The notes: generated by a model from the sequence alone, not told the origin. Counted from the stretch's first letter, positions 5,483 through 29,797 are shown. The stretch is DNA of 33,765 bases from Thermoflexales bacterium (GCA_017998555.1 JAGOCU010000002.1:1-33765), one strand, 5' to 3'. Numbers and translations: made by a program.

Positions 5483-5728
5483 GTGACCGACCCGGACGGT
5501 GCGGCGGTGCGTGGCGATCCGTCGATGGAGCAGGCGAACATCATCGGTTCCGCCGACCCCGGCAGCCAGTTTCAAGTGCTCGGCGAGTTTCTCCCCTGTG
5601 AGGGTATCGATCTGAATACCGGCTGCGATAGCTGGGCGCGGATCGTCTATCCCGGCCACGAGCAGGCTTGGATCTGTCTCGGATCCGGCACGGCCGTCTA
5701 TGGGCGGTTGGATTACCCCAATGAATGA
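5483..5728 (+). CDS. Small SH3b-like domain protein (81 aa, GTG start, no signal peptide)
   Basis: AAVRGDPSMEQANIIGSADPGSQFQVLGEF....WARIVYPGHEQAWICLG resembles a bacterial SH3 (SH3_3) pattern (vR..Ps....vig.l..G..v.vl.....W.ki...g..GWv). Third-position GC is coding-like. Start choice and function are uncertain. Confidence 0.5.
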   Translation: MTDPDGAAVRGDPSMEQANIIGSADPGSQFQVLGEFLPCEGIDLNTGCDSWARIVYPGHEQAWICLGSGTAVYGRLDYPNE

Positions 5729-5741: not shown

Positions 5742-5784
5742 GGGGATCGACATCCATCGGCGAAGCCGATGGATGTCGATCCCC
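5742..5784. repeat. Palindromic element copy E (20-bp perfect stem, GAA triloop) in the 75-nt gap before the giant gene
   Basis: GGGGATCGACATCCATCGGC (5742-5761) / GAA / GCCGATGGATGTCGATCCCC (5765-5784). The apex CGGCGAAGCCG is identical to that of copy B (30507-30557). Confidence 0.8.
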
Positions 5785-5803
5785 ATGTCTGTTGGTAAAA
5801 CGC

Positions 5804-8800
5804 ATGCGCAAACAACGCCTCCTCATTCCCGTTCTGATTCTGGTCGCGGCCGGCCTGGCCGCCTTTGGCGGCCGGGCGATGGCCTCCTACGTGCCGGCGC
5901 CCCCGGCGGCGCCACCCAGCGCCGCCGCGCAGCTTGAGACCGCCTGGCAGAACGCCAAAGCCGCGGGCAGATACCGCTACGGCGCGGAAGTCGCCCAGAC
6001 CACCCATCCGACGGCGCGCTTTGAGAACCAGGGATTGAGCAGCAAGACCCAGCACTTCAGGCTCGATGGCGCGATCGATCTGCCGGCCCAGACGATGGAC
6101 CTCAAAATCTGGACGGGGGAAGGCAGCGTCGATTCCGAGGCCGATGCCCTGCAGTTGAAGGTCGCGGATGGCAAGTCGCTCGGCCGCACGGGCGTCGGCG
6201 CCTGGCATGAGTTGGAGGACGCCAGCGCCCTGTTTGCGCCCGAGCATGACGCGCTCAGTTTCCTGGTCGCGGCCCGAAACGTGGCCGTCGCTGGCACGGG
6301 GTCGAGCGCCGGGATCGGCTACACGCGGTATGCCTTCACCGTCGACGGGCCGGCCTATGCTGAGTACATGCGCGGGCGGATGGATGATGAACTGCGCCGG
6401 CGCGGCAAGCTGCCAGCCCAATTCAATACCAGCGTTATCCGCCAGTATGTCGATATGACGAGCAGCGGGGAGATCTGGGTGTCGGACGCGGGCCTGCCCG
6501 TGCGCGAGATTGTGCGGATGAGCTTCCCGCCTCAGGGTCTCGAGTGGGTTGACGCCGAGATCAGCACGGACTTCACCGATTGGGGTGAGACACGGCTTGC
6601 GTTGGGCGGGCCGGGCGATGTGCTCTCCCCATCACAGGTCCTGGAGCGGGCCCTGACCCCGGCGACCGTCGCCGGGTTGTCGCAGGCCGCCACCCTGGCC
6701 ACAATCGCGCTAGGCCTGGCCGCGTTTCTCTTGTTGCTGACCCGCTATGGCGGCTCGCGGCGGGTCTACCGAATGGTGGTGGTGTCAGTGATTGGCGCGA
6801 TGCTGTTTGGGCCCTTGCTGCAAACGCGCCAGGTGTCGGCCTTCATCGACGATCAGCAGGCGGCGCGGACGCGCGCCGATGAGCGGGCGGGCGCCGAAGC
6901 GCAGCAGCAACGCCTGGAGACTGTGCTGAATGCCAATGACTTTGATCCGAACGTCCCACCGTTGATGGCGGTGGCCGATCGTCAGGAAGCAGAGCGGCAA
7001 TTCGCCTTGGCCGGCGGCAGCCCCAGTCGGTTTGTCGCCGATGCCGGCGATCCCGAGCCTGACGACACCGCCGTCTACAACGGCTGCGAGAAAACCAGTG
7101 ATGACGCGGACCCCGACAACGACGGCCTGAGCAACATCCAGGAAGAGGCCCTCGGAACAGATCCGTGCGACCCCGATAGCGACAACGATGGCATCCCGGA
7201 CGGCGCGGAAGTTGTCGGCTTCAGCCTGGGCGGGCTGCGCTTCTATCTCGATCCGCAATCGGTCGACAGCGATCGCGATGGCATTCCGGACAGCATGGAA
7301 TGTGACTTCCTCGAGATGAACGCCGATCCGGCCAAGTGGGGGAGGGCAGAGCTTACAGGGCCGTTCAAGATCTGGGAGCGCCAGAGCAACCCCTTGACGG
7401 CGAAGTCGTGCGAGGACACCGACGCAGACGGCCTTCCTGATGTGTGGGACGACGACTCGGACGGCGATGGCGTGCCGGATGGCATCGATCTTGCGCCCAC
7501 GACCGTTCTCGCCGGCGGTTACGCGGGCGGGGCCCCCGCGGGCTTTGCAAATCAGAGCTTCGATCTGGCGATCAAGAGCCCGACTCCGGGCAAGCCCTTG
7601 ATGGTTGAGTTCCAGCTTCGGCCCGCCAACCCGGACCACCTCTTTCTGCGCCAGAACGTGCTGGACTGGGCGAAGGACGACCGCAAAGGCCAGGTCCAAC
7701 GGGTGAAAGATAGCACCTACGGGGCCAGCGGGCGGGACGCCAACGGCAACATGCGGCTGAACCCGTATCTCGAGATCAAGGTCACCCTGACCAATGGAAC
7801 GGGGGATGGCCTGCCCGTGAAGGCGGGCTACAACCAGAGGCCCATCACCCGCCAGACCCCGCTGGCGCAGTGGCTGGATCGCGAGGCGCTTTCGAGCTTT
7901 GGCATCTCGGTCAAGAGCGTCGATACGGCCGGGAACCTGGTGGTTTACGTGCCCATTCAGGTTGTGCGCGACAGCGTCGGGACCAAGCCCGTGGCGTTTT
8001 CGGCCACGATGTTCTACCGGCCGGGCGCCGCCGCGGACTGGACCAGCCAGGCGAAGCTGGTTTGGCTGATCGAGGCCATGACCGACTACTGCGACACGAG
8101 CGACGCGGACCCCAAGGGGGATGCGGATGCGTACGATAAGTGGTGCGCCGGGACGACCCATTGGAAGACCGTTCCCGATCAAGTCATTCACGCCTACTAC
8201 GACGATTGGTTCATGACCGGGATGTCGTTGCGTGAGGACCGTGGTGTGAAAGTGGGCGTGCTGTTCGAGGATCCCACCTACGCGAGCACCCATGATTTCA
8301 ATGCGAGCAACTACTACGAGGACAACCTCTGGCAATTGTCAGACAATATTGAAGGCAGCTTTCTGGCCGGGCGCGCCGGGATGTCGGTCGACGAACTGAA
8401 AAAGCGCTTCGATGATGGCAGCCCGTACGCCGATGGGGCCAAAGAATTGTGGGGCTTCCCCAAGGGCATGTTCCGGGTGGTCACTTACGCGCTGGAGAGC
8501 CAGGCCATGATGCCGGTGATGGCGATGACGAACACGCCGGCCCTGCTCAATCGCTATTTCACCCCGACCGCCGCCCTCATTGACGCGCCCACCCTCTTGT
8601 TCGCCCGCGAGGAGACCTTTCGCGCCCTGGCCCAGGAACCCGCCGGGCGGAGCGTGGCCAGCCGGCTGGAGTTCAACCTGTCCGAGACGATGCTGCCGGC
8701 CCAGACCATGGGCTCGTTGAACTGGGCCCCGTATCGCTACAAAGGCGCCCGGGTATGGGAGCCGTATCCGATCGCTGATTACATCGATCGCCTGCATGCG

Positions 8801-11800
8801 CGGCTGGGCCCGCTCTTTTCGGACGAGGACGAATTCAAGGACAAGTACGTCCTGGCCGGCGCTTTGCTCAATGCCGACGCGATGTTTGTCGCGCGTTTCA
8901 TGGGCGCCACCAGTGTCGTGCGGGTCGGGGCCGAGGCTGTGACCAACGCCGATGTGGCGGAAAAGGATGACAGCCTCACGGCAAAGATCACGGGCCAAAT
9001 CCCGAAGTTGGGCAAAAAAGCCAAGAAACAAGTTCTGGACCTGGCGAAGAAGCGCTCCACCATCGAGTTTGCGGCCAAGAGGGGTTTCTCGGGCGGGATT
9101 ACGCCGCAGAGCTCGGTGCATCGGACCTCCAAGTATTTGGAGACGATTGGGCAGGGCGCGTATGGAAAGAACCTGGGCGCGAAGCCCAAGCTCAAGAAAG
9201 GCGCCAATACCACCAAAAAGCAGATCGCCAAGGACTTTGCCGTTGTAGCGATCACGGCGGGTCTGATGGCGGGCGCGAACTACGGCGCACAGAAGGGCGG
9301 AGCAGGCGGCACGGGAAAGACCGGCGGCACCCTTGTCGCGATCGCCAAGTCCGTTAATGACATCAAAAAGGCCGCGACAGACGTGCGGGACGCGTACAAA
9401 GCGGTCAAGACCGCCAAGGCGAGCTATGGATCGATCTCGGCCGCGGCCAAGGCCGCGCCCAAAGTGCTGAAGAATGTCAAAGCGGGGACGGCTGCGATCG
9501 GCCTGGTCATCGAGGTCGGGGTCGCGGTCGGGATGTTCTTCCTCGAGTCGGCCGACATGAAGCCGGGCAGCGATGCCTACGACCAGGCCGTCGTGATGCT
9601 GGTGGCGACCATCATCGTGGCCGTCATCATGACGGTGATCGCGGCCATTCCGATCGTCGGTCAGCTCATCGCGGCCGTCATCGCCCTGATCGATGTGATC
9701 GCTGGCGCGATCTGCAAAGCGCTGGGGGTGGAGGCCGACCCCAACGGCAACAGCGCCAAGGACTGGTTATGCAATGGGTTGACCGGTCTGCTGACCAAGG
9801 CGGTTGCCAAGTTCATCTTCAGTTCCAATCCGATCGTCAACCTGAACGACGAGAGCCGACGGGTCGTCGGCGGCATGCAGCAGGACCTGACCGATCCCTC
9901 CAAGGGCTTTCAAGAGGGGAACGGGCTGAAGGTGAGCTTCAAGATCACCAGCACCATCGTGCCCAACGAACCCAACTCATGGATGGCCGAGATCTACTCC
10001 TACCACTATGAGGATTACTATCTCGTGCAGACGGAGATGGTCTATGCGCTTCAACTGCAGGATGCGGAGCTTCACAATGGCCTGCGGACGACCAGCAACG
10101 GGCTCTGGCGCTATTGGAAGAAGAACGCCAGCACCGGGCGCTTCTACACCGTCGCCCAGCCCAGCGTCTCGATCACCCTCACCCACGCCGGCCTGAATCA
10201 ACCGACCCGGATGCGCCTGGCCGAAGGCGTGGCGATCAACAAGCAGAAGTGCGGGTATTTCATCTTCACCGTGGTGTGCTGGCTAACCGACGAGAGCAAG
10301 ACGACGGGCATCCCAATCGACGACATGCAGCTCGATGTGTTTCCAAACACGTTCGCGAAATTCTACAATCTGGTTGACCGCGGCAATGACAGCTATGCGC
10401 TGTCGTGGGATCCAAGCTTCCCGACGTTGTGCGACGCGGATGGCGACGGGCTGCGCAGCAAGGCCTGTGGCGGCGGCGACCCCAACGATCGCAACCCGGA
10501 CTCGGACAACGACGGACTGTCCGATTTTGATGAGATCGTCACCTTCGGCACAAACCCGATCAATGCGGACACCGATGCCGATGGATTGACCGACTACTTC
10601 GAAGTCCGGTCCAACTCCGACCCGCTCCAGGCCGACAGCGACGGGGACGGCCTGTTTGATTGCGAGGAAGTCGCCCATCGGGTCACGGTCGTCGATTCGG
10701 CGAACCTGTGCGGATCGGTGGGGGCCTGGTCGGGCGGCTGGCTGTTCATTTACGCATTTAATGCCGCCAATCAGCCGCTGCGCACCCGGGTGCTGCCCAA
10801 CCCCGACAGTGTCGACAGCGATGGCGACGGGATCCTGGACAACAAGGAGCGGATTTACGGCTTCAACCCGCAGGTCTACTCGCGCCTGGATGTGCTGAGC
10901 CTCAATGCCGAGGTATTCGAGGATGGCGCGCAGACCGACGGATTCGTTGGCCCGGGCCAAACCCTGACTTATACCGCCCGGCTGAAGAACTTCCTGAATG
11001 ACAAGTTCGGGCAGGGCCTGCTGGATGTGGTGTTCCCGGCCGCAGTGGCGAGCGTGGATCTGTTGCCGCAGGCGTTTGTGCTGCAACCCCGCCAGACGGT
11101 CACCAAAACGGGCCGACTGACGGTCAGCCCGAGCATCACCGCGACCCAGCAGTTGACCCTGACCAACCGGGCCGGGGCCGAGATCACCGACTTGTATGGC
11201 AATTCGAATGAGGTGCGCACACTGTGGCTGCACTTCGACGAGAGCGCTGGCGCGACCACGTTTGTCGACAGCTCGGTCAATCAGAATACACCTGGCTGCG
11301 CAGCCTGTCCGCTCAGCGGGCAACCCGGTGTGGTGGGCCAGGGGTTGTTGTTTTCGGGCACTCAGTACATTTCCGGGACCACGATGAGTGGGATCCAACT
11401 GCTTGACTCGAGCTACAGCGTTGCGGTTTGGGTGAGCGTATCGCAGCCGATCTCCGGCGTCGTTATGCAGATTGGGTCAGTAGCCGGGGGTGATCGCGAT
11501 TTGCTTCAGATATCTAACGGCCGGCCGTCCATTTATGCGTTGCGGTGCTACTACGTGGGCTGCTATGGCAATATCGGGACGGCGGCATTCATGAGCGCGA
11601 CTGCGCCGTTGCCGGTGAATCAATGGCACGAGATTGTGTTCCGCTATGACAAGGACAAGCAGGAATACGCGATCTTCGTTGATGGCCGGCTCGATGTGGC
11701 TATTGCCGGCATGCGCGCACTCCGGGCTGCCGGCCCCGTCTTTATCGGCAGTGGGTTCAAGGGAAACTTGGACGAGCTGCAGGTCTTCAATCGGGCGCTG

Positions 11801-14800
11801 AGCGATGTAGAGATCGGCGCGCGGGCCAGCGCGCCGGCGCTGCGCCTGAAGTTCGATGGCGATTTCAAGGACGCATCGCCGTTCAAGCAGGCGGCGGTGA
11901 CTCGCAAGGCCGGTCAGCCCCTGAATTATCCGTGCTGCGATTACGACGATACAGCCAGCAAGACCCGGATCAGCTTTGGGTCCGGAAAATCGGGCAGTGC
12001 GGCGAGATTCTATGGTTGGTACTACGGCACTGCGTACGACACCGGCTACATTGCCAGAAACGGCCGCTGGATCAACGACGGATACTCGAATGCTCCGGTG
12101 GTGGCCGTCCCCGCCAATAGCAGCCTGGATCTGAGCGGGGGGCGCTTCACCCAGGCATTCTGGATTGATCCGAGTATCAAGCCGTATATGGACTTCGAGT
12201 ATTACACCTATGATCATCCGGGCCAGGATTCGGCGCTTTTGCATTCCGAAACTGCGCCAGAGAATGCCCGGGTGGGTGTCCTGGGCGGCGAGTCAGTCTA
12301 TCAAAACGACCCAGAGTATCGGTATCCGTTTGTCGAGCTGGTTGGACCCAATGCCAGGTTCCCGGTATCCGGCAATCCGGGTCTTCGCTTGCGCCTGGGT
12401 TTCAGCAACGTGTGCGTTGCCGAGTCGGCTCCATTGATCTTCGAGGGTGACTTCCAGCATGTGGTGATCAGTTTTGACAACGGCGTCTACACGATCTATA
12501 AAAATGGCGTGCTGCAACAGACCTTGCCATTGCCGGCCGGGTGCCAGAAGCCTGCCTCAATCAACTACATCAGCAACGCGCTGATTGGACGGTCGCGCGA
12601 GGCATATAAGGCCAGCACAGACAAAATACGCGAAGTGCGCCTGTACACCCAGACCAACTACACCGGCGCGTATATCTCGACGTCCATGGATCTGGCCAGC
12701 GTTGTGTATGGTGTTACCGCAAAGTCCGTCAAGTTGATCAACACCTGCGCCCGGCTGTACAGCGCGAATTTCTATACGGGGACGACGGAACTACTGTGCA
12801 GCGATGTGCCCGATATGAGCGGGCACGCAACGAACAACGCCATCCGCTCCGTCGAGTTCGGCCCGCGGGCGCGGGCCTTCAATGGCAGGCTGGACGATGT
12901 TCGGATATACCGCAGCGTGTTCAGCGGCGCGGATGCGCTCGATTTGTACAACGAGTCGCTGCGCCCGGTCGAGCTCAGCCTCGACGAGTCGCCCGGAACG
13001 AAACGTTTCCGCGACAACTCGTTTTCGGACAACAGCGTGACCTGTGATTACGCCGGCGGGCGCTGTCCGACCAGCGGGCTGGGCGGGCGGGTCAGTCAGG
13101 CCGCGCGCTTTGACGGCGTGAACGATACGCTTACACTCGGTCCGGGCGCGGTCAGCCTCTCGTCAGGTTCGTTTGGCGTGGCGGCCTGGGTCAAGACCAG
13201 CGCTGCGGGAACCCAGATCATCGCCCAGCAGCGCGGGCCAATTCCTGATCGGGATGCCTATCTGTTGGAAGTGAACGGCGGCAAGGCGCACTGGATGAGC
13301 ACCTCCGGCGGCGCCTCCTCACCCGCGTTCAACCTGACTTCTACCGTGACGATCACTGATGACCAGTGGCACCATGTGATGGGTTCAGGCGGCGGCAATC
13401 AGGCTCAAATCTATGTGGATGGTGTCGAAGTGGCCACCAATCTGTCGGTGCCAGGCATCGCGTTTGCGACGAATGCGTTGTCGGTGACGATCGGCGGCGA
13501 CTTGCTTTCGAACCGCCGCTACTTCAATGGACTGCTCGATGACGTCAAGATCGTGCGGGACGAGGCCACCTCTGGGGCCGGTGTACAGACGCTGCTGGAT
13601 GCGGCGCCGAATCTCAGCCTGCACCTCGATGACGCCGATGGCGCGCGGGTCTTTGCCGATGACACCCGCCTGCATCTCGACGGCGGCTGTTTTGGGGCGG
13701 CCTGCCCGCAGCCCGGCGCCTTTGGCCAGGTGCGCGGCGCGGCGACCTTTGACGGGATCGATGACATCATTACGGTGCCGGACACCAGCACACTCCGCCT
13801 GCGGACCTTCAGCATCGGCTTGTGGGTTCGTCCCACCGAGATCCGTTCGGGCCGGCAGACCCTGGTGAACCGGGGCGGTTATTCGGAAGCCTGCTCACAG
13901 GACGCCAACGACAAGAATCGGAATTACTACATCGGGATCGAGCCGATGTCGATGACGCTGCGCTTCCTGGCCGGCCAGACGCCCTATGTGTTTCCTGGCG
14001 CGCCGGACCCCGGCAAGCCCGAGGCCTGCGCGACGCTTGCGCCGTTGTTCAACCTGACGACCACCAAGAAACTCAATCTCAAACAGTGGAATCACGTGAT
14101 GGGAACCTTTGATGGCCGCATCGCGCGGCTGTATGTCAACGGTTCACTGGCCGCCAGTTCGCCGGCGGTCAATCCGGCTGCCGTCATGCCGATCATGCCG
14201 AATGCGCCGGTCGAGATTGGCAGGCTTTTCAACCCATCGAGTTTCGATCTTCCGTTCAGAGGCGAGCTTGACGAGCTGAGCATCTATGGGTCGGACCTGA
14301 GCGCTCGGACCATCAAGCAAGTCTATGACTACCAGGCGGCCTGGTTCGACTTCAGCATGGGGACGCGCCTCACGGTCGATGCCGAACGCCCAGCGGTCAA
14401 GATCGACCTGAATGTCCCGCGGATCAAACTGGCCCAGGATACGGTCCTGTGCGCTTTGGCTTCCGATGCCAGCTCGGGTGTGCGTTCCATCGAATACAGC
14501 GAAAATGGCGCGCTCTGGAAGAGCGCCGACATCGGGGCGGGTTATGCCGCCGTCATCACGAGCACCGACGGCAATGGCGCGACGATTACCCGCACCACCA
14601 CCACCGCTGGCTCCCAGCGCAGCGCGGCGGGTTGTTTCGTTACCCCGATCGTATCGAGCGCGGGCGTGAAGACGATGTATGCTCGCGCGACCGACGCGGT
14701 CGGGCTCACCCGCACAACGACCGTAACCTTCTCGGTTGATGGCGCCGGGCCGGTCGTGGCGCTGGCGGCCAGCCTCCAGGCCGCCCCGCGCAGCGCGGTC

Positions 14801-20968: not shown

Positions 20969-23900
20969 TCGCAATCACACCGGTCTCGGCGCGCTGATCG
21001 GGATGACGGCGCTGGCGGGCGGCCTGGCGGCCGCGGCCTCGCTGCTGATGGGTGCCGCCCCTGTCCAACGGGCCAGCGCGAGCGCGCCCGAGCGCGCCGC
21101 CAGCACCCGGGTCGTGACCAGCACCGCGGACGGCGGGGCGGGCAGCCTGCGCGAGGCCATGGCCGCGGCGAGCGCCGGCGACCTGATCCAGTTCGCCTTG
21201 GCGTCCAACGCCGTGATCAGCATCAATTCAACGATCATTGCCGCTGTCAATGCAACCATCGACGGAGCGGGCCAATCGGTGACCGTGCATGGCCAGAACG
21301 CAGTGCGCGTGCTGGACATCAACCCGAGCGTGACGTTGACGCTGACCAGAATGACGCTGGAAGGAGGACGCGCCAGCGGGCATGGCGGGGCCGCGCGTAA
21401 TCTGGGCATTCTTCTGATCGATCACAGCGTGATTCGAAACAGCAGCGCTACCGGCGACGGCGGCAACATCTACAACGCGGGCATTTTGCGGATCGCCTAC
21501 AGCGAGATTGTGGCGGGTAGCGCCGTCACCGGCGCGGGTGGCGGCATCGCCAACGCTGTGGGCGGCTCTGCAGTGATCTTGAACGGCCTCTTTCACAGCA
21601 ATGCCGCCCAGTCATCGGCGATCAGCAACCTGGGAGTGGCGGAGGTACGCAACACCAGCTTCTACTACAACAATGTCATCAGCAGCGCCATCCCTGGCGC
21701 CACATCGGGCATTTCCACGAGTGGCATCCTCACGATCGTAAACAGCACGATTGCGGCGGTTGGCGGGTTTGGCTTAAACACCACGGGCGGGACGGCGACC
21801 CTGCTTAACACCAGCATGGCGGACGGCGTCGCCTGTGGCGGAACCCAGCCCATCGACGGAGGCGGGAACCTGGATGTCGGCAACACGTGCGGCTTTGCGG
21901 TTGGGGCGCCGAAGTACTCCCTGATCAACACAAGCCCTGGAGTGGATTTTGGCGATGTCTACCTGAGTCCGCTGCCTGGCGGGGCAGTCATCGACGCGGG
22001 CCAGAACGGGGCCGTTGGCGCGGACACGCTGGATGCGCTCGGGCAGCCGCGAATCCGAAATGGGCGGGTCGATATTGGGGCGACGGAGTACCTCCAGCCC
22101 TTTGTGTGTTCGGGCATCTTCGCGCCGGGCAGCCCGATCTTCAACCGCACGGATCCGGGCAATCCGCCGACGGCGTTGGCGCCCGGCCCCGGCACGGCCG
22201 CCTACCATCGTCCGATGACGTTCACGGTGTCCTCCACCGGCTTGTACTCGATGGCGATGTCGGGCGGGATGGATGGGTTTTACGCGTTGTATCAAGGCAG
22301 CTTCAATCCCGGCGCGCCGCTCTCCAACGTGCTTGAAGCGACCGACGACATTATCGGCGCCAATCCGGCCATCTACCGCGCCATGACGGCCGGCACCCAG
22401 TATGTACTGGTCGCGACGACCTACTTCGACTATGAGACGGGCTCATATACCAACACCCTTGACGGTCAAGGTGCCGTCCTCGGCGATTGTCCGCGGATCG
22501 TGACCAGCGGCGCGGACAGCGGTCCGGGCAGCCTGCGCGCCGCGCTCGCTGCAGCGAGCGCTGGCGACGCGATCGGCTTCGCCCTGCCAGGCAACTCGGT
22601 CATCACCCTCACCTCGACCCTGACGGTCAACGTGGCCGGAACCATCGACGGATCGGGGCAATCCGTGAAGTTGTATGGCGTCGATCCGGTTCCCTCGCTC
22701 CTTATCAATCCGGGCGTCGCTCTGACGTTGACCGGGTTTGACTACGCGAGCGGCGGCGGGAGCATCGACGCTTCGATTTTCAACTCGGGCACGCTATCGC
22801 TTTCGCATGTGGACCTGGGTGTAGTCAACGCCGCAATCGTCAACGCGGGCACGCTCAACTACAGTGACGGGATCAATCAGGGCACCAATAACAGCAATAT
22901 CACCAACACGGTGGGAGGCTTGGCGACCTTCTCACGGGTTGCCTTCATCAGCCAGGCACCGGCCATCGTCAACCAGGGCGCGGCCACGGTTCGAAACTCG
23001 GTGTTCGTCTATGGCATCGGCGACGCGATCACGGCGACGCTGGGCATCTCGAATAGCGGCGCGCTCACGGTTGTGAACAGCACCTTCGGGGTCCAGAGCG
23101 GGATACAGATCTTCAACGCGGGTGGAACGGCAACGCTGTACAACACGATTCTGGCTGGTGACACTGTCAGCACGACGGTGAACTGCGCGGGTATCGCGCC
23201 GATCGACGGCGGCGGGAACCTTGACAGCGGCCACTCCTGCGGGTTCACGTCTGGAGCGCCGAAGTACTCGATCATCAACATGGATCCGTTGATCGATGGC
23301 GGCGACATCTACCTGCGCCTCTTGGCGGGCAGCCCGGCCATCGACGCTGGGCAGAACGCGGCTGTGGGGGGCGACACGATGGACGCGCTTGGGCAGCCTC
23401 GGATCCGGAACGGGCGAGTCGACATCGGGGCGACGGAGTATGTCCAGCCCTTCGTGTGCTCGGGGGTCTTCGCGCCGGGCGGGCCGACCTACAACCGGTC
23501 GGCGATCGGCAATCCGCCGGTAGGTCTGGCGTCCGGCCCTGGCACGAGCGTCTTTTATCGCCCCATCACCTTCTCGGTCTCATCCAGCGGCCCGTATTCG
23601 CTGGTGATGTCGGGCGGGCTGGATGGGTTTTACACGTTGTATCAGGGTGGCTTCAACCCTGGCGCGCCTCTCGTCAATGCGCTCGAGGCGGTCGACGACT
23701 TCGTCGGGTTGAATCCGGCCATCTACCGGATTCTGATCGCCGGGACGCAATACGTGCTTGTGTCGACGACCTACACCGACAATGCGACCGGCGCCTTCAC
23801 CGATAGCATCGACGGGCCCGGCGCTGCGCTTGGGTCTTGCAACCCGGTCGCGACGGCGCCGCCAACGCCCACGCCGACCAGCACGCCCACCCATACACCG

Positions 23901-26900
23901 ACCCCCACCCGCACGCCCACGCCCACGCCGACCCCGGCCATCACCTGCAACATGTATTACCCCTCGGATATGCCGAGGACGCTGGGCGACATCGCCGCCT
24001 TGAGCTCGCTGGTCATTGTGACCGACACCTTCATGGTCAGCGATGTCAATATCGTCGGTTTTGGTATGACGCATCAGAACGTGGGCGATCTGGGCATCTT
24101 CCTTTCCTCGCCGGACTTCACCCAGGTCGTCCTGTCCTTCCGGAATGGCGGGACGGGGGACAACTTCAGCGGGACCAGCTTCGACGATGCGGCGGCGTTT
24201 TCCATCGTCACGGGAACAGCGCCCTACTCGGGCACGTTCCGCCCGGAAGAACCGCTCAGCCTCTACAACGGCATGAACGCCCCGGGGAACTGGACGTTAA
24301 GCCTGAATGACAACTCCGTTCCCTTCACCGGGACTTTGACCAACTGGGCGCTGCAACTGTGCGGCAACATCGCCACACCGACGCCGACAAACACGCCGAG
24401 CAACACCCCCACCGCGACACCGACGAGTACGCCGACGAGCACCCCGACGGCGTTGTGCACGGGTCTGGACGCCTGCACCGGCGCTACAGGCAGCATCGGC
24501 ACGAACTCCTGCAACGGGGATTACGCCTGCTACGGGGCCACCGGCCCCATCGGCAACAACGCCTGCAACGGCGATCAGGCCTGCAATGGCTCGAATGGGC
24601 CGATCGGCAACAACTCGTGCGACGGCGTGCAGGCCTGTTACGGCACCGGCCACATCGGCGAAAACTCCTGCAACGGCGAATTTGCCTGCGAGCTCATCAG
24701 CGGCCCGGTCGGCGACGACGCGTGCAACGGTTACGCGGTCTGCTATCACCGCGCTTCGCCGGTCGGGGATTGCGAGTTCAACGACCCGGTCATCGCCTGC
24801 ATCACCCGCACGCCGACGCCGACCTCCACCGCCACCGCCACCGGCACGGCCACGCCAACGCCGACGCGGACCTCGACACCCACGGTGACGCCGACGTCGA
24901 CGAACACGGCGACCTCGACGGTGACGCCGACGGCGACACCCACCCTGGTCCCGGGCACCGTGGGCGCAACCAACAACAGCCCAACCCTGCTCGGCAGCCC
25001 AACCTTTCTGACCTCGACCGCGACGCTCAACACGCCGGTCTTTGCCTGGCGCTTTGGGGATGGGACGTTTGGCAGTGGCGCGGCGCTCAGCCATGTCTAT
25101 CCTGCGATCGGTAACTACACTGCGGTCGTCACGGCCAGCAACGGCATCTTCACCCTGACCACGTCGACCCTGGTCAGTATCCTGGATGTGCCCATTGCCG
25201 GGCTGGCGTCGGTCAATGACAGCCCGACCTGGAACGGGCGCCCGAGCGTGCTGACCGCGACGAGCAGCGCTGGAAGCAATATCGGCTATCTGTGGAACTT
25301 CAGCGGGAGTGTGAGCGCCGGCTCGGTGGTCAGCCATGCCTATGCGCTGCCGGGCACGTATGCTTACGTCATCACGGCGACCAACACCCGCGGCAGCGCA
25401 ACGGTGACGGGAACCGTCAGCGTCGTCCAGGCCCGTTTCCTGGCGCCGGGCGGGGCGGACAGCGGCGACTGCCGCGCGCCAGCGAGCCCGTGCGCGACGT
25501 TTGCGTATGCGCTGGATCAGGCGGCGCCGGGCGACTACATCGGCCCAGCGGCCGGGACCTACATCCAGCCGAATGTGATCGTGACCAGGAACGTCATCAT
25601 CCAGGGCGCCGGGGCAGGCGCCACCTTTGTCCAGGCGGCGGCTGCGCCAACGCTCTCCAACCTGCGCGTCTTCCGGATTCTCTCGGGCACAGTAGCCACC
25701 CTGCGCGGGATGACGATCCGTTACGGGGCTGGCATCCAGAATGACGGCGCGTTGCAACTCGAGGACAGCGCCATCGTCAGCAACACCGCCACCTTCGACG
25801 GGGGCGGGATCTTCAACATCGGCCGGCTGGGCGTGCGCGACAGCAGCATCATGTCGAACACCGCCAACCGGGGCGGCGGGGTTTACAACGCCGGGACGAT
25901 GACGGTCACGGACAGCGCGATCTCGAACAACCGGGCCGTCGACAGCGCCGGGTTGCACAACGCTGGCGTGCTCACCCTGACCCGGGACCTGATCGCCGGC
26001 AACGCGGCCACGGACGCGGGCGGCGGCCTCTACAACACGACCGGAGCGACCCTGACCGTGCGCAGCAGCGCGCTGGTGAGCAACAGCGCCAGCGTTGGCG
26101 GCGGGCTGGCCAACGCGGCCGGCGGGCTGATCGATATCGGCAACAGCACCATCGCCGCCAACACTGCCGTCAACAGCGCCGGAATCAACAACAACGGCGC
26201 GCTGACCCTGAGCAACAGCACCCTGGCCGGCAACATTGCGTCGAACAAGGGTGGCGGGATCTACAACAGCGCCGCGGCGGCCTTCCATGTCCGGCACACG
26301 ATCCTGGCTGGCAACACGGCCGCCAGCGACGCCAACTGCAGCGGATTGGGAAGCATCGACACGCTTGGCTACAACCTGCAGTACCCAGGCGCGGGCTGCG
26401 GCGGGCTGACGGCCGGCGATCCGAAACTCGGGCCGCTGGCTTCCAACGGAAACGCGCTACCCAGTATGGCGCCATTGGGCGGCAGCTTTGCCGTCGATGA
26501 GGGCGACCCGACCGGCTGCGCCGACAGCGCAGGCGCAGCCGTGCTGTTCGATCAGCGCGGGACGGCCCGCCCGCAGGGCGCGCGCTGCGATATCGGCGCG
26601 TATGAACACGTCCCCTCGGCCCTCACTGGCATCAGCGCCAGCGCGACGACGCCCACCCGCTTCGGGAGCGCAACGGTCTTCACGGCCAGCATCGTTGGGG
26701 ATGACCGCGCGCTGTACACGTGGAGCTTTGGCGATGGCGGGGTCACGCTCACCACTCATTCGCCCGTAATCAGCAAAACCTATACCCAGCTTGGGGTCTA
26801 CACCGCCCGGGTGACGGCCACCAACGGGATCAGCACGGCCACGGCCAGCGCCGCGCTCAGCGTGATCGACACGCCAATCACCAGCCTGGTCGCGACCAGC

Positions 26901-29795
26901 ACCAGCCCGACCCGCTTTGGCGAGGTCACGACCTTCACCGCCAGCGCGAGCGGCAGCCACATCGTCTTCACCTGGAACTTCGGGGATGCCGGGGCGGCGC
27001 CGGCGCAGCGCACGGGCGCCGGCTCTGTCGTCACACACACGTATTCGGCCGGTGGATTCTTCACCGCCCAGATCACCGCCACCAACGGCGTCAGCGCGGT
27101 GGTGACCACCCGCCAGGTGGCGGTCGCCAATCAGGTGTATGTGAACGCGGCCGCGACCGGGGCGAACAACGGGCTGACCTGGGTCGATGCTTACCGCGAC
27201 TTGCAGACCGCCCTGTTGGGCGCCGCCAGCGGGCAGGAGCTGTGGGTGGCCCAAGGCACGTATTTCCCGGCCCCGCCGCGTGGGAATCCCTTGCTCAGCT
27301 TCCAGCTTCGCAACAGCGTGGCGCTCTATGGCGGTTTCTCCGGCGCCGAGACCACCCGCGGCGAGCGAAACCCCGGCAGCCATCCAACAATCCTGAGCGG
27401 TCTCATCAGCGGCCCGAACATTGTTCCGAGCCAGCATGTGGTTGACGGCAGTGGCGTGAATGAGACTGCCGTTCTGGATGGCTTCACCGTGACCGATGGC
27501 TGGGCGAGCCTGCCTCGGTTCGGCGGGGGCTTGTACATTGTGGGCGGCAGCCCGACGGTAAGCGATACGAAATTCGTTGGCAATCGCGCCCTCTACGACG
27601 GCGGGGCGATCTATATCCTGAATGGCAATCCGCGGCTGACCGGGCTCGCGTTCAGCGCCAATACGGTGTTCTCCAGCACGGGGCGCGGCGGCGCGATCTA
27701 CATCGGCGCCGGAAGCGCGCCCATCATCGAATCGAGCGTCTTCAGCGGCAACACGGCCTTCAATGGCGGCGCGATCTATCACACCGGGATCAGCGCCACC
27801 CTGCGCAATTTGACGTTCACTGGCAACAGCGCGCTCACGGCGTCGCTGAACGTGCGCGGCAGCGGCGGTGGCCTCTACGTCGCAACCCTCGCGGATATGG
27901 GCTCGCTGCGATTCCAGGGCAACTTCGCGGCTGGCTTTGGCGGCGGGATGTATATCGCCTCCGGAAATCAGGCTCTCTCGAACGCCACCTTCGACGCCAA
28001 CTACGGCTTCCACGGGGGTGGACTCCACGTTGATGCGGGCGCGCTGACGCTGATGGATGCGACCTTCACGGGCAATTCCGCTGGCGCCGGGGGTGGCATG
28101 GAAACTGGCTATGCCGCCACCGCCACGCTGAGCCGAGTTTCCTTCCTGGCGAACACGGCCTACAACGGCGGCGGGGTAAGCGCCGGTTTCGAAATGACCT
28201 ACACCAATGTGATCTTCGCAGCCAATGCAGGCCAGCAATATGGCGGGGCAATCTTCAACGGGAGCAATGGCGCCACGCAATTGACGAACGTTACGGTCGC
28301 GGGTAACAGCGCCGGATACAAGGGTGGCGCCATTGCCAATCTGACCGGGGGGGTGCCGTCGATCCGCAACAGCATCCTGTATGGAAACGTGACCGGGGAC
28401 GGCCTGCAAATCTATTCGTACCTGGCCCCGGTCGTCAACGACAGCCTCATCGAGGGCGGCTGGGTCGGCGGGGTCAATATCGCGCGCCTCAATCCGCGCT
28501 TCATCCGTGAACCTGGGACCAACGGCAGCGCGGATGCGGGCGATCTGCATCTGCAGCCCGGTTCGCCGGCGCGCAACGTTGGCAACAACGCCACCTGCGC
28601 TGCGGTTGACCGGGACGGCAATGCACGCCCACGCACCGTTGGCAACCCGTGCGACATGGGCGCCTACGAGTACAGCGGGCTGCTTCTGAATGTTCCAGGG
28701 AATCGACCGCAGACCGACGCGCCGGAAACGGGTGTGTTCGCGGCGCCGCCCGGCGATGTGCTCGTACAGGCGCCGCAGGGTGCGGTCATCGCTACGACCG
28801 AACTGGCGTTCAGCGCCGGCCCGAATGCCGAGTCACGGGTGCCCGAGGCCTATCGCTCCGTGAACGTCTTCAGTTTGGACGCCTGGCAGGCCGATGAGAG
28901 GGTGGCCGGCTTCCGCTTCGCCACGCCGGTCACGCTCGTCATCGGCTACGAGCGGACCGACTTGAGCGAGGACGAGGCCCAGGCCCTGATCGTGCGCGCC
29001 TACGACATGGCGACGGGCGAATGGACGAGCGATGGCATCGAAGTCGTCGCTCAGGACGCGGAGGCCCGGACGGTGACGGTCGCGACGACGCGGACCGGGG
29101 CGTTCGGCCTGTTTATTGCCCCGCTCAAACTCAACGCTCGGATCATCGCCAGCGGCCCAACGGGCACGCGCAACCTGGCGGCGGGCGCGCAGGTACTGTA
29201 TCGGGTCGTGGTCGACAACCCGACCGATCAGCCGGTGACCGGCGCGTCACTGTCAGTCGCGCTGCCGGCCGGAATGATCTTCGAAGCCTGGCAGGAGCAG
29301 GGCGGCGCAGCTGAGTCGAATGGCGTCGTAACGCTCGTGTCGTTTGACCTCGGGCCGCACAGCAACGCGCTGCTCGCGTTCAGCGCGCGGACCGGCAGCG
29401 ATCCGGCCCTGGCCGGGACGACCCTGCCGGCTGTGCTGACGCTCAACGCTGACGATCTGGCACCCTTCACCGAGCGGGCGGAGGTCAGCCTGAACGGGCC
29501 GGTGTCGGCGGTGGCGGACACGATCACGACGACGCTGGGCGGAGCGGTGGCGGTCGCCGTCCTGGCCAACGATCTCAACCCTGACGCCAGCCCGCTCGTG
29601 TTGGCCGTGGTCGGCGCGCCGGGCAAGGGCCGGGCCGAGATCGTCGGGCATGCGGTCGTCTACACACCGGACGTCGGCACGAGCGGCTCGGACGCGTTCA
29701 GCTATACCGTGCAGGACGGGGCTTTCAGCGCGGAAGGGACGGTGACGGTCTGGATCGCCGGGCGGACGCTGTATCTGCCGGTGCTGGGGCGATAG
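20961..29795 (+). CDS. Giant (2,944 aa) secreted mosaic protein: CSLREA-type/parallel beta-helix (Pmp-like, choice-of-anchor-Q-like) modules, P-domain, Cys-rich repeats, 4 PKD domains, DUF11-like and cadherin-like domains
   Basis: ATG at 20961 follows a purine-rich GGGGGAAG and overlaps the upstream stop (ATGAGTAA). The N-terminus MSNRNHTGLGALIGMTALAGGLAAAASLLMGAAPVQRASA is signal-peptide-like. The ORF runs uninterrupted to TAG at 29793-29795 and contains many recognisable modules (see sub-features). Confidence 0.9.
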   Translation: MSNRNHTGLGALIGMTALAGGLAAAASLLMGAAPVQRASASAPERAASTRVVTSTADGGAGSLREAMAAASAGDLIQFALASNAVISINSTIIAAVNATIDGAGQSVTVHGQNAVRVLDINPSVTLTLTRMTLEGGRASGHGGAARNLGILLIDHSVIRNSSATGDGGNIYNAGILRIAYSEIVAGSAVTGAGGGIANAVGGSAVILNGLFHSNAAQSSAISNLGVAEVRNTSFYYNNVISSAIPGATSGISTSGILTIVNSTIAAVGGFGLNTTGGTATLLNTSMADGVACGGTQPIDGGGNLDVGNTCGFAVGAPKYSLINTSPGVDFGDVYLSPLPGGAVIDAGQNGAVGADTLDALGQPRIRNGRVDIGATEYLQPFVCSGIFAPGSPIFNRTDPGNPPTALAPGPGTAAYHRPMTFTVSSTGLYSMAMSGGMDGFYALYQGSFNPGAPLSNVLEATDDIIGANPAIYRAMTAGTQYVLVATTYFDYETGSYTNTLDGQGAVLGDCPRIVTSGADSGPGSLRAALAAASAGDAIGFALPGNSVITLTSTLTVNVAGTIDGSGQSVKLYGVDPVPSLLINPGVALTLTGFDYASGGGSIDASIFNSGTLSLSHVDLGVVNAAIVNAGTLNYSDGINQGTNNSNITNTVGGLATFSRVAFISQAPAIVNQGAATVRNSVFVYGIGDAITATLGISNSGALTVVNSTFGVQSGIQIFNAGGTATLYNTILAGDTVSTTVNCAGIAPIDGGGNLDSGHSCGFTSGAPKYSIINMDPLIDGGDIYLRLLAGSPAIDAGQNAAVGGDTMDALGQPRIRNGRVDIGATEYVQPFVCSGVFAPGGPTYNRSAIGNPPVGLASGPGTSVFYRPITFSVSSSGPYSLVMSGGLDGFYTLYQGGFNPGAPLVNALEAVDDFVGLNPAIYRILIAGTQYVLVSTTYTDNATGAFTDSIDGPGAALGSCNPVATAPPTPTPTSTPTHTPTPTRTPTPTPTPAITCNMYYPSDMPRTLGDIAALSSLVIVTDTFMVSDVNIVGFGMTHQNVGDLGIFLSSPDFTQVVLSFRNGGTGDNFSGTSFDDAAAFSIVTGTAPYSGTFRPEEPLSLYNGMNAPGNWTLSLNDNSVPFTGTLTNWALQLCGNIATPTPTNTPSNTPTATPTSTPTSTPTALCTGLDACTGATGSIGTNSCNGDYACYGATGPIGNNACNGDQACNGSNGPIGNNSCDGVQACYGTGHIGENSCNGEFACELISGPVGDDACNGYAVCYHRASPVGDCEFNDPVIACITRTPTPTSTATATGTATPTPTRTSTPTVTPTSTNTATSTVTPTATPTLVPGTVGATNNSPTLLGSPTFLTSTATLNTPVFAWRFGDGTFGSGAALSHVYPAIGNYTAVVTASNGIFTLTTSTLVSILDVPIAGLASVNDSPTWNGRPSVLTATSSAGSNIGYLWNFSGSVSAGSVVSHAYALPGTYAYVITATNTRGSATVTGTVSVVQARFLAPGGADSGDCRAPASPCATFAYALDQAAPGDYIGPAAGTYIQPNVIVTRNVIIQGAGAGATFVQAAAAPTLSNLRVFRILSGTVATLRGMTIRYGAGIQNDGALQLEDSAIVSNTATFDGGGIFNIGRLGVRDSSIMSNTANRGGGVYNAGTMTVTDSAISNNRAVDSAGLHNAGVLTLTRDLIAGNAATDAGGGLYNTTGATLTVRSSALVSNSASVGGGLANAAGGLIDIGNSTIAANTAVNSAGINNNGALTLSNSTLAGNIASNKGGGIYNSAAAAFHVRHTILAGNTAASDANCSGLGSIDTLGYNLQYPGAGCGGLTAGDPKLGPLASNGNALPSMAPLGGSFAVDEGDPTGCADSAGAAVLFDQRGTARPQGARCDIGAYEHVPSALTGISASATTPTRFGSATVFTASIVGDDRALYTWSFGDGGVTLTTHSPVISKTYTQLGVYTARVTATNGISTATASAALSVIDTPITSLVATSTSPTRFGEVTTFTASASGSHIVFTWNFGDAGAAPAQRTGAGSVVTHTYSAGGFFTAQITATNGVSAVVTTRQVAVANQVYVNAAATGANNGLTWVDAYRDLQTALLGAASGQELWVAQGTYFPAPPRGNPLLSFQLRNSVALYGGFSGAETTRGERNPGSHPTILSGLISGPNIVPSQHVVDGSGVNETAVLDGFTVTDGWASLPRFGGGLYIVGGSPTVSDTKFVGNRALYDGGAIYILNGNPRLTGLAFSANTVFSSTGRGGAIYIGAGSAPIIESSVFSGNTAFNGGAIYHTGISATLRNLTFTGNSALTASLNVRGSGGGLYVATLADMGSLRFQGNFAAGFGGGMYIASGNQALSNATFDANYGFHGGGLHVDAGALTLMDATFTGNSAGAGGGMETGYAATATLSRVSFLANTAYNGGGVSAGFEMTYTNVIFAANAGQQYGGAIFNGSNGATQLTNVTVAGNSAGYKGGAIANLTGGVPSIRNSILYGNVTGDGLQIYSYLAPVVNDSLIEGGWVGGVNIARLNPRFIREPGTNGSADAGDLHLQPGSPARNVGNNATCAAVDRDGNARPRTVGNPCDMGAYEYSGLLLNVPGNRPQTDAPETGVFAAPPGDVLVQAPQGAVIATTELAFSAGPNAESRVPEAYRSVNVFSLDAWQADERVAGFRFATPVTLVIGYERTDLSEDEAQALIVRAYDMATGEWTSDGIEVVAQDAEARTVTVATTRTGAFGLFIAPLKLNARIIASGPTGTRNLAAGAQVLYRVVVDNPTDQPVTGASLSVALPAGMIFEAWQEQGGAAESNGVVTLVSFDLGPHSNALLAFSARTGSDPALAGTTLPAVLTLNADDLAPFTERAEVSLNGPVSAVADTITTTLGGAVAVAVLANDLNPDASPLVLAVVGAPGKGRAEIVGHAVVYTPDVGTSGSDAFSYTVQDGAFSAEGTVTVWIAGRTLYLPVLGR
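21111..23840 (+). repeat. Diverged tandem duplication of a ~1.37-kb (~460-aa) module: CSLREA-like motif + beta-helix + ...RIRNGRVDIGATEY + unassigned ~150-aa C-terminal subdomain
   Basis: Module 1 runs about 21111-22495 and module 2 about 22498-23840. Matching landmarks: VVTSTADGGAGSLREAMAAASAGDLIQFAL / IVTSGADSGPGSLRAALAAASAGDAIGFAL; identical DALGQPRIRNGRVDIGATEY; QPFVCSG(I/V)FAPG...MSGG(M/L)DGFY.LYQG.FNPGAPL...AGTQYVLV.TTY...LG(D/S)C. Confidence 0.85.
23938..24366 (+). other. Proprotein-convertase P-domain-like module flanked by Pro/Thr linkers
   Basis: MVSDVNIVGFGMTHQNVGDLGIFLSSPDFTQVVLSFRNGGTGDNFSGTSFDDAAAFSIVTGTAPYSGTFRPEEPLSLYNGMNAPGNWTLSLNDNSVPFTGTLTNWALQLCG. PT linkers lie at about 23853-23940 and 24372-24452. 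Confidence 0.7.
24456..24800 (+). repeat. Cys-rich tandem repeat, ~18 aa x 6-7 (C-N-G-x-x-A-C-x-G-x-x-G-P-I-G-x-N-S/A), 14 Cys in ~115 aa
   Basis: CTGLDACTGATGSIGTNS / CNGDYACYGATGPIGNNA / CNGDQACNGSNGPIGNNS / CDGVQACYGTGHIGENS / CNGEFACELISGPVGDDA / CNGYAVCYHRASPVGD / CEFNDPVIAC. Followed by a third PT linker at about 24804-24955. Confidence 0.8.
24960..25430 (+). other. Two PKD domains
   Basis: FAWRFGDGTFGSGAALSHVYPAIGNYTAVVTASNG and YLWNFSGSVSAGSVVSHAYALPGTYAYVITATNTRGS (WxFGDG...H.Y...G.Y.v.l.v.n pattern). Confidence 0.8.
25430..26615 (+). other. Parallel beta-helix repeat block ending in a choice-of-anchor-Q-like motif
   Basis: Repeated GGG(I/V/L)(F/Y)N.G.l.v..S.i..N.A units (GGGIFNIGRLGVRDSSIMSNTANRGGGVYNAGTMTVTDSAISNNRA...), ending in LFDQRGTARPQGARCDIGAYEH. 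Confidence 0.7.
26625..27130 (+). other. Two PKD domains
   Basis: YTWSFGDGGVTLTTHSPVISKTYTQLGVYTARVTATNG and FTWNFGDAGAAPAQRTGAGSVVTHTYSAGGFFTAQITATNG. Confidence 0.8.
27130..28675 (+). other. Parallel beta-helix / polymorphic-membrane-protein-like repeat block
   Basis: VYVNAAATGANNGLTWVDAYRDLQTAL...LWVAQGTYFP...LYGGFSG.ETTRGERNP, then repeated GGAIY...F.GN.A units, ending in VDRDGNARPRTVGNPCDMGAYEY. Confidence 0.7.
29500..29760 (+). other. Cadherin-like / bacterial Ig-like terminal domain
   Basis: AVADTITTTLGGAVAVAVLANDLNPDASPLVLAVVGAPGKGRAEIVGHAVVYTPDVGTSGSDAFSYTVQDGAFSAEGTVTVWI (the A.dD...t..g..v.i.vLaND.d.d...l.......p..G.....g..v.YtP..g..G.DsF.Ytv.D pattern). Preceded by a DUF11-like segment at about 29135-29480. 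Confidence 0.65.
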
Positions 29796-29797
29796 AC

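Follow-up and report, generated by a model that had tools for sequence, protein, structure and literature searches.

Why does a Thermoflexales bacterium devote 71% of a 33,765-nucleotide (nt) stretch of DNA (GCA_017998555.1, JAGOCU010000002.1:1-33765; hereafter the window) to two overlapping genes for giant proteins? The two open reading frames, ORF1 and ORF2, together span 23,992 nt and would encode products of 5,054 and 2,944 amino acids (aa). A first-pass annotation made from the DNA alone read the pair as an operon for two mosaic surface proteins without precedent. We find that ORF1 belongs, in colinear alignment, to a very large family in Chloroflexota. Judged by sequence, it is a family of giant envelope proteins that is specific to the lineage and has no name; its members share a predicted base of ~1,800 aa comprising a signal peptide, a LolA/LprG-like domain, a transmembrane (TM) hairpin, TSP3 arrays, two family-specific domains (A and B) and a TM bundle. 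ORF2 is a predicted secreted protein with four beta-helices, unrelated to ORF1.

Are reading frames of this length genuine? The G+C content of third codon positions (GC3) tops that of the other positions in every 900-nt segment, with minima of 0.74 in ORF1 and 0.80 in ORF2, and the flanking housekeeping genes show the same codon-position pattern. Because the GC3 peak runs throughout both frames, they are not chance ORFs of GC-rich sequence. A metagenome contig from ENA (L001) matches window positions 12168-30474 without gaps at 99.97% identity; its two differences within the ORFs are both synonymous and both in ORF2. A contig of an NCBI metagenome-assembled genome (MAG; L002, GCA_018006875.1, JAGMXL010000001.1) matches positions 1-11772, again gap-free at 99.97%, and its annotation likewise gives a 5,054-aa product. 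Since independent assemblies match without gaps or indels, the ORFs are not assembly artefacts, and they stand as two intact, uninterrupted frames, as first described. The 8-nt overlap was also found where it had been placed, with the start of ORF2 overlapping the stop of ORF1, and GGGGGAAG just 5' of the ORF2 start is a possible ribosome-binding site. As regards coupled expression, no predicted terminator or promoter was seen, and no Rfam family matched in the window. Co-transcription is plausible, given the shared orientation, the overlap, and the fact that no terminator-like site was found 3' of ORF2, where the next gene is convergent.

The family to which ORF1 belongs was revealed by exhaustive HMMER search alone; word-indexed searches with ORF1 aa 1-1560, aa 570-1540 or profile A1 returned mostly proteins that share TSP3 repeats only, or 4-17 family members. 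With ORF1 aa 570-1540 as the query, 895 cluster representatives passed E<=1e-3, of which 484 also passed E<=1e-30, the clusters being drawn at 50% identity. Nearly all matches are proteins of 3,000-7,141 aa that carry the module at aa ~550-1600, and the best relative is 44% identical over query aa 7-971. Among 157 retrieved relatives, BLAST alignments to ORF1 aa 50-1800 are found in 102-154, to the LamG region in most, and to aa 3850-4330 and 4500-4950 in roughly one in three. By tblastn, ORF1 is colinear from end to end with three relatives (P0069, P0072 and P0073, encoded in loci L010, L012 and L013); in L012 the in-order alignment covers ORF1 aa 43-1863, 2358-3494 and 3868-4998. Every relative with a source name (13/13) comes from a Chloroflexota MAG, assigned to Anaerolineae, Anaerolineales or Thermoflexales, and the existing annotations read 'hypothetical', 'LamG domain-containing', other single-domain names or mis-assignments. 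All 12 full-length relatives scanned possess LamG and the same module classes as ORF1, and no toxin or recognised enzyme family was found in those 12; jelly-rolls of the 3keto-disac_hyd and sialidase types occur in the family. Family genes occur in multiple copies, frequently in tandem or near other giants (L010, L012 and L013), and two members (P0095 and P0131) are encoded on one 256-kb contig.

What does the conserved base look like? Both proteins begin, as had been noted, with a hydrophobic, signal-like N-terminus. In ORF1 this segment (aa 5-23; helix 4-29 in the AlphaFold2 (AF2) model) is present in nearly all relatives. ORF1 also contains strongly hydrophobic helices at aa 295-313, 321-339 and 1229-1247 and across a ~45-aa stretch at 1264-1307. 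These lie far from the N-terminus, and ORF1 is therefore a polytopic membrane protein with five or six internal TM helices, which the first-pass annotation overlooked; its picture of a purely secreted surface protein does not hold. The layout is kept in 84 full-length relatives: an N-terminal segment, a TM pair at ~280-345, one or two hydrophobic segments, and a hydrophobic hairpin, the last being 53-57 aa long in nearly all relatives. Among aligned relatives, Gly1286 of the hairpin region is found in 144/144, Asp1297, which sits halfway along the last TM helix, in 138/144 (with Glu in four more), and Cys1304 in 141/142; in domain B, which follows, Cys1323 and Gly1325 are kept in 137 and 138 of 139. 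The Lys-richness of the linker that precedes these helices (33 Lys in aa 1001-1250) was considered as a family feature and rejected, as it is not conserved in relatives, many of which hold a hydrophobic segment in this region.

Structural models assign a fold to part of this base. The AF2 model of aa 1-575 (mean per-residue confidence, pLDDT, 77) consists of the signal helix, a half-barrel, TM helices at aa 289-315 and 319-376, and then TSP3. The half-barrel (aa 40-260) has 11 strands and a helix, is modelled at pLDDT ~90 and has no Pfam match. Foldseek matched it to LprG, LppX and LprF of Mycobacterium tuberculosis (3mh9, 3mh8, 2byo, 4qa8) with E-values of 4e-7 to 5e-5, a probability of 1.00 and a TM-score (target) of 0.49-0.59, and to LolA as well. 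The model of aa 575-1560, built with family alignments as input, has a pLDDT of 80 and a pTM of 0.67; it shows domain A (aa ~585-1055), the linker, long helices at aa 1177-1338, three of them hydrophobic, and domain B. Nothing in PDB or BFVD matched this model at E<=1e-3. Foldseek echoes of pore-formers and S-layer proteins were rejected at probabilities of <=0.14. Sequence and profile searches of PDB with the unnamed regions gave only noise or Ca2+-loop matches. Pfam had no match for domain A and only BB_PF, at E=0.071, for domain B. Four regions of ORF1 to which no name could be put at first inspection (corresponding to the half-barrel, domain A, domain B and aa 4100-4480) have no significant Pfam match, the sole echoes being this one and CARDB (E=0.088); the three in the N-terminal third of the protein are what marks the family.

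Beyond the base lies a stalk of recognisable modules. Each LamG domain in its array is preceded by a C....CP motif, and the interspersed Ig-like domains are Big_7 and Big_13 (Pfam). The LVIVD propeller aligns in only ~18/157 relatives and is an accessory module. The unnamed region at aa 4100-4480 has colinear matches in L010, L012 and L013; Pfam yields only the CARDB echo for it, and a PDB sequence search gave no match. The P-domain of ORF1 has no protease domain attached and is 30% identical to that of ORF2. The list of modules drawn up from the sequence was for the most part borne out by Pfam and NCBIfam (TSP3, LamG, LVIVD, PKD, P-domain, beta-helix, cadherin-like and Cys-rich repeats). The beta/gamma-crystallin domain was not: a search of aa 2151-2300 at E<=10 gives Laminin_G_3 only, although HMMER filters may hide very weak matches.

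ORF2 is built on a different plan, with no TM segment besides its hydrophobic N-terminus (aa 12-30). Two duplicated units, aa 50-510 and aa 512-960, each consist of a choice-of-anchor-Q beta-helix and an unnamed domain of ~125 aa; the first copy of the latter (aa 385-511) has no Pfam match. The choice_anch_Q model (NF041518, cut-off 25) scores 148.6 bits on ORF2, spread over four stretches of which aa 1820-1882 is the best. The block containing the P-domain and DUF7640 is flanked by Pro/Thr linkers. The fourth beta-helix contains Chlam_PMP repeats, which score 39.9 bits (cut-off 20.6), and a weak DUF1565 match, and a weak Beta_helix match also occurs in ORF2.

The last residues of ORF2 link it to the ORF1 family. 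Its sole match to the pattern [YF][LFMI]P[LVIMF][VILMAF] ends two residues from the C-terminus, in the sequence LYLPVLGR. The same pattern lies within the last 80 aa of 36/97 large family members and occurs elsewhere in those proteins at 0.007 per 80 residues, a ~50-fold enrichment at C-termini. Family members end, for example, in RIYLPLVVRN, TIYLPLIFKN or IYLPLVKR, of the type [YF]LPL[VI]x[RK], and 8/97 end instead in a TM helix and an Arg-rich tail. Unrelated beta-helix proteins of Chloroflexota, encoded in L015 and L044, finish in the tail as well, and the pattern was found at none of 637 ORF ends of non-Chloroflexota loci. We found no description of a YLPLV-type motif in the searchable literature. 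The tail probably functions in sorting or attachment. ORF1 itself does not carry the pattern near its end; it has only a degenerate version, IYRANLPLITGG, followed by 55 further residues that run into ORF2, which suggests that its original end has decayed. The string LPLITGG in ORF1 was considered as a sortase (LPXTG) signal and rejected, there being no TM segment or basic tail after it. A different conserved C-terminus (...NRPQLVIQYYVP) is shared by ORF2-like Chloroflexota beta-helix proteins in four loci (L014, L016, L017 and L067).

Do the two genes travel together? The first-pass annotation envisaged a distinctive paired apparatus that conserved synteny would bear out, and this is not what we observe. 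No ORF2 homologue lies beside any of six ORF1 relatives (tblastn, E<1e-8). Their neighbours vary: two family paralogues stand in tandem in L010 and in L013, a different giant of 4,046 aa lies upstream in L012 with another family member 8 kb away, and a DEAD-box helicase gene follows the family gene in L009. Glycoside hydrolase genes (GH2, GH3, GH8) follow family members in two loci, one of which, L013, also has sugar ABC transporter genes. Four ORFs with overlaps of 14-35 nt come after the relative P0227 in L008 (10001-28685). We rejected these as partners, as they carry homology to ORF1 aa 3908-4571 and continue that of P0227; they are probably parts of one gene for ~6,200 aa split by frameshifts in a long-read assembly. 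The relative in L007 is a truncated copy, which lies (15564-17935) near a YD-shell fragment, an Imm5-like gene and a transposase. From the other side, ORF2 was searched against 185,579 species-representative genomes, which gave 78 loci; within 10 kb of the ORF2-like genes, none of these has the N-terminal domain of ORF1, either of its domains A and B, or its region aa 3850-4480. Relatives with wide coverage of ORF2 occur only in Chloroflexota; Streptomyces and others match single beta-helix units only. The closest relatives are only ~41% identical, over segments. With no ORF2 near ORF1 relatives and no ORF1 module near ORF2 relatives, the pairing is therefore local, and a two-gene apparatus is probably not a general system.

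How might the two proteins work? The reading that we favour, at a probability of roughly 0.55, is that ORF1 is a membrane-anchored, Ca2+-stiffened envelope fibril with a LamG/Ig/propeller stalk that binds glycans or surfaces, and ORF2 a co-expressed, secreted beta-helix surface protein with the same kind of tail. The two genes would form one transcription unit, and ORF2 would be co-expressed because it lies immediately downstream of ORF1. The ORF1 base would be exported by its N-terminal signal peptide and fixed in the cytoplasmic membrane by the TM hairpin at aa 289-341 and the TM bundle at aa ~1228-1307, possibly with a weak fourth helix. Outside would lie the LolA/LprG-like domain, predicted to hold a hydrophobic ligand, domains A and B, and the two TSP3 arrays, which would bind Ca2+. 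In order along the chain, the LolA-like domain would be outside, followed by the TM hairpin, then the first TSP3 array and domain A outside, a four-helix pass, and domain B, the second TSP3 array and the stalk outside again; this topology would therefore place the conserved Cys pair on the oxidising side. The variable stalk of ~3,300 residues, with its LamG, Ig-like, beta-propeller and P-domain modules, would project outward and most likely bind glycans or other surfaces, in adhesion, cohesion or substrate capture. ORF2 would be exported by the Sec route and stay unanchored, without being a partner specific to ORF1. The originally proposed role in a sheath, in adhesion or in a matrix is a reasonable guess.

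Several points weigh against this reading. With only the three clear TM helices at aa 1228-1307, the stalk would end up in the cytoplasm, so that the reading requires the weak fourth helix to be real, and the candidate (aa ~1134-1152) has a mean hydropathy of ~1.2 and low pLDDT, its counterparts in relatives being usually stronger. The near-invariant Asp in mid-membrane suggests more than passive anchoring. It is the domain classes, and these alone, that suggest an adhesive or binding role. One relative from a Chloroflexota MAG (P0224, 1,309 aa) has domain A fused to RHS/TEN_YD-shell repeats, which hints at other uses of the module. The genomic contexts inspected are those of six relatives from a family of hundreds of clusters. 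As had been stated at the outset, no catalytic or toxin domain was detected, in that no toxin, recognised enzyme or PADLOC defence family matched in ORF1 or ORF2. Many pectate and polysaccharide lyases fold as right-handed beta-helices. As beta-helices like those of ORF2 may act as polysaccharide lyases or hydrolases, the absence of a catalytic domain is not proven.

Could the pair instead be a scaffold for capturing and degrading polysaccharides? In such a cell-bound, cellulosome-like arrangement LamG would bind glycans and the ORF2 beta-helices would be active lyases or hydrolases. The family does contain LamG, 3keto-disac_hyd-type and sialidase-type jelly-rolls, the lyase fold and the weak DUF1565 and Beta_helix matches in ORF2 point the same way, and relatives adjoin the GH3, GH2, GH8 and sugar ABC transporter genes described above. 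However, no catalytic family of the CAZy type is significant in ORF1 or ORF2, no glycoside hydrolase or sugar transporter lies beside the pair in the window, and such hydrolase neighbours were seen in only 2/6 loci. We regard this alternative as possible and rather unlikely.

A dedicated two-component sheath, adhesion or filament-matrix apparatus, in which ORF1 is the membrane dock and ORF2 is attached to it or polymerised on it, appears improbable. The 8-nt overlap, the shared orientation, the presence of the same P-domain type in both proteins and the family-type tail of ORF2, which the LolA-like domain of ORF1 could in principle hold, would all suit such an arrangement. Against it stand the neighbourhoods of the six ORF1 relatives, filled by paralogous giants, glycoside hydrolases and unrelated genes, the 78 ORF2-like loci that lack an ORF1 module, and the low, segmental identity of the closest ORF2 relatives.

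We also entertain, as speculation of slight probability, that the base is a new envelope device of monoderm-like Chloroflexota that combines an Asp-bearing TM bundle, ion-coupled or partner-binding, with a LolA/LprG-like pocket, the [YF]LPL[VI]x[RK] tail being an undescribed lineage-specific sorting or attachment signal that perhaps docks in such pockets or is processed by an enzyme. A separate, mechanical reading, by analogy with MotB, ExbD and TolR, would have the Asp-bearing bundle use ion flow to move the extracellular stalk or put it under tension, for example in gliding or regulated adhesion. The conservation of Asp1297 and Gly1286, a conserved base of ~1,800 aa under a variable stalk, and a weak resemblance of the TSP3 regions to Myxococcus CglD and MtsD would fit. 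Yet PDB sequence and profile searches and Foldseek revealed no similarity to a known stator or transporter, the CglD and MtsD scores (~37 bits) lie far under their cut-offs and come from TSP3 repeats alone, and a buried Asp may do no more than help helices to pack by pairing with a basic residue; we consider an energised machine very unlikely. Equally doubtful is a polymorphic toxin or contact-dependent antagonism protein whose base would serve in delivery or translocation and whose hydrophobic hairpin would insert into a target membrane: it is favoured by the domain A-RHS fusion in P0224, the company of the truncated L007 member, and pore-formers (gasdermin, alpha-hemolysin, BB_PF at E=0.07) as the best, non-significant echoes, and is opposed by the absence of RHS, toxin and immunity domains in ORF1 and ORF2, a downstream neighbour that is a convergent PhoU-like gene, family C-termini that are conserved tails or TM anchors and not variable toxin tips, and Foldseek probabilities for aa 575-1560 that never exceed 0.14.

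Where do these proteins stand among known systems? Giant genes are reported at a comparatively high frequency in Anaerolineae, with surface proteins as their presumed products (PMC10608941), and the favoured reading is consistent with this. Giant adhesins such as SiiE, LapA, MpIBP, the LPXTG giants and the tandem Giant1-5 of Apilactobacillus kunkeei (PMC12863079) likewise comprise thousands of residues with Ca2+-binding and Ig- or lectin-like modules; they project from the cell, as is predicted for members of the ORF1 family, and their genes are often the largest of the genome and sometimes lie in tandem. Unlike RTX adhesins exported by the type I secretion system (T1SS), ORF1 and ORF2 have no HemolysinCabind repeats and no T1SS signal or retention module in Pfam or NCBIfam searches, and have Sec-type N-termini instead. 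Unlike sortase substrates, neither shows a C-terminal LPXTG motif with a hydrophobic helix and basic tail, and neither has an autotransporter barrel. We know of no characterised adhesin with an N-terminal polytopic base that contains a LolA/LprG-like domain. LolA, LprG and LppX are envelope carriers of lipids or glycolipids, and ORF1 aa 40-260 has the same half-barrel-with-helix fold, predicted to lie just outside the membrane. In contrast to LprG and LppX, ORF1 has no lipobox Cys (there is no Cys in aa 1-250) and identity is only 13-15%; in contrast to the LolA superfamily at large, its half-barrel is a domain of a 5,054-aa protein and not a small lipoprotein. ORF2 shares its beta-helix units with choice-of-anchor-Q proteins and its Chlam_PMP repeats with the chlamydial Pmp proteins, in which these are typical passenger or surface modules, but it differs from autotransporters and Pmp proteins in having no autotransporter domain or recognised C-terminal anchor. 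Bacterial TSP3 arrays like those of ORF1 are found in Myxococcus CglD (adventurous gliding) and MtsD (cell-cell cohesion). ORF1 is neither of these (NF033765, 36.5 bits against 400; NF047639, 37 bits against 800), the match being to the second TSP3 region only. RHS/YD-shell polymorphic toxins (PMC3482391) are likewise large, secreted and variable in architecture, and P0224 joins domain A to their repeats, whereas ORF1 and ORF2 lack RHS repeats, a C-terminal toxin, an immunity gene and any PADLOC match.

Giant modular surface proteins are thus known already, and 5,054 aa is not exceptional. Three features that Pfam and NCBIfam do not annotate are new: the polytopic base with its LolA/LprG-like domain, two domains with no structural counterpart found in PDB or BFVD, and the tail motif. 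As filamentous bacteria, Anaerolineae and their relatives abound in sludge, sediments and hot springs. To our knowledge, little is understood about their cell envelope and their adhesiveness, and hardly any of them can be manipulated genetically. The locus points to a family of ~900 clusters among the biggest proteins of these bacteria. Naming and modelling the family would improve the annotation of thousands of giants now called "hypothetical" or "LamG domain", and the tail, Asp1297 and the LolA-like pocket offer concrete targets for studying how the surface is constructed.

The features of ORF1, ORF2 and their upstream region are collected in Table 1.

Table 1. Positions of genes, domains and other elements in the window (nt counted from its first letter; aa counted within the ORF named)
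Feature	Residues	Window position	Strand	Basis or remark
SARP/STAND-type regulator (BTAD + NB-ARC/AAA_16 + TPR)		1864..5262	-	divergent from ORF1
Small 81-aa ORF, weak SH3_3 resemblance		5483..5728	+	E=9.8e-4, 19.7 bits against a 27-bit cut-off
Perfect 21-bp stem with 3-nt loop		5741..5785	+	19 nt upstream of the ORF1 ATG
ORF1		5792/5804..20968	+	5,058 aa from TTG, 5,054 aa from ATG
Signal peptide or signal anchor (MRKQRLLIPVLILVAAGLAAFGGRAMA|SY)	ORF1 1-27	5804..5884	+	cleavage site placed by eye
LolA/LprG/LppX-like half-barrel	ORF1 40-260	5921..6583	+	AF2 and Foldseek
TM helical hairpin (TM2/TM3) with Arg-rich turn	ORF1 289-341	6668..6826	+	hydropathy, AF2, relatives
First TSP3 array, putatively Ca2+-binding	ORF1 430-565	7091..7498	+	TSP3_bac; invariant Asp columns in alignment
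Family-specific beta-rich domain A	ORF1 575-1060	7526..8983	+	AF2 pLDDT mostly >85
Lys-rich low-confidence linker	ORF1 1061-1227	8984..9484	+	pLDDT <50; possible weak extra TM at ~1134-1152
TM helix and ~50-aa hydrophobic helical hairpin	ORF1 1228-1307	9485..9724	+	G1286, D1297, C1304
Family-specific beta-sandwich domain B	ORF1 1308-1545	9725..10438	+	pLDDT mostly >85; carries Cys1323
Second TSP3 array, putatively Ca2+-binding	ORF1 1546-1710	10439..10933	+	TSP3_bac 64.8 bits
LamG (Laminin_G_3) jelly-rolls, about seven, with Ig-like domains between them	ORF1 ~1790-3330	11171..15793	+	Pfam
LVIVD-repeat beta-propeller	ORF1 ~3500-3860	16301..17383	+	LVIVD 113 bits, four stretches
Conserved unnamed domain(s)	ORF1 4100-4480	18101..19243	+	~55/157 relatives align
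P-domain (proprotein-convertase type)	ORF1 4708-4806	19925..20221	+	P_proprotein 29.9 bits (cut-off 21)
Degenerate YLPLV-type tail IYRANLPLITGG	ORF1 4988-4999	20765..20800	+	sequence compared with relatives' C-termini
ORF1/ORF2 overlap		20961..20968	+	ATGAGTAA; 8 nt, ORF2 start over ORF1 stop
ORF2		20961..29795	+	2,944 aa
Tandem duplication of a ~460-aa unit	ORF2 48-1005	21102..23975	+	copies 55-70% identical
P-domain, then Cys-rich DUF7640 repeats	ORF2 1034-1290	24060..24830	+	P_proprotein 37.8 bits; DUF7640 114.8 bits
PKD x2, beta-helix 3, PKD x2, beta-helix 4	ORF2 1340-2560	24978..28640	+	PKD 108.7 bits, four stretches
DUF11/CARDB-like (weak) and Big_9/cadherin-like (Cadherin_5)	ORF2 2738-2930	29172..29750	+	Big_9 54.7 bits; DUF11 E=0.0017
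Tail LYLPVLGR	ORF2 2937-2944	29769..29792	+	sole pattern match in ORF2

The search for conserved synteny that had been suggested at the outset took in two upstream genes as well. A gene of the SARP type recurs beside one relative: a BTAD/NB-ARC/TPR gene lies upstream of P0227 in L008, with 28.6% identity over 680 aa. The regulator of the window likely starts at MYELSG..., as called in L002, which gives 1,133 aa. It qualifies as SARP-type with BTAD at 41.3 bits (cut-off 22.1) and TPR_12 at 71.7 bits; its AAA_16 and NB-ARC matches fall below their cut-offs. A STAND regulator of the MalT type is found near the relative in L007. The SH3-like ORF of 81 aa, in turn, has no tblastn match at E<1e-8 at the locus of any relative examined. 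It is called as a gene in L002 and L004, and its status as a real gene is uncertain.

The hairpin that precedes ORF1 has a predicted RNA fold of -49.6 kcal/mol (z = -7.7). Comparably long perfect hairpins lie 5' of family genes in L009 (1000-1043), L010 (9696-9733) and L013 (9936-9964). It may be the terminator of the 81-aa ORF, a 5' leader stem of the giant mRNA, or an operator.

Downstream, the convergent gene that follows ORF2 is PhoU-like (PhoU_div). Between it and the PHO4 gene, ~98 nt (window 30475-30572) are replaced by 6 nt in L001, beyond which identity to L001 falls to 91.7%; the pattern resembles an indel or a recombination boundary between strains. Positions 32742-33737 (+) encode a polytopic membrane protein of 331 aa (GC3 0.84) with a weak match to prepilin peptidase (Peptidase_A24, E=6.8e-4, below the cut-off), and the minus-strand ORF that overlaps it looks spurious. 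At the opposite end of the window, a PIN-domain gene occupies 464-871; an upstream partner gene of 72 aa is seen in L002, and the two are likely a toxin-antitoxin pair unrelated to the giant genes.

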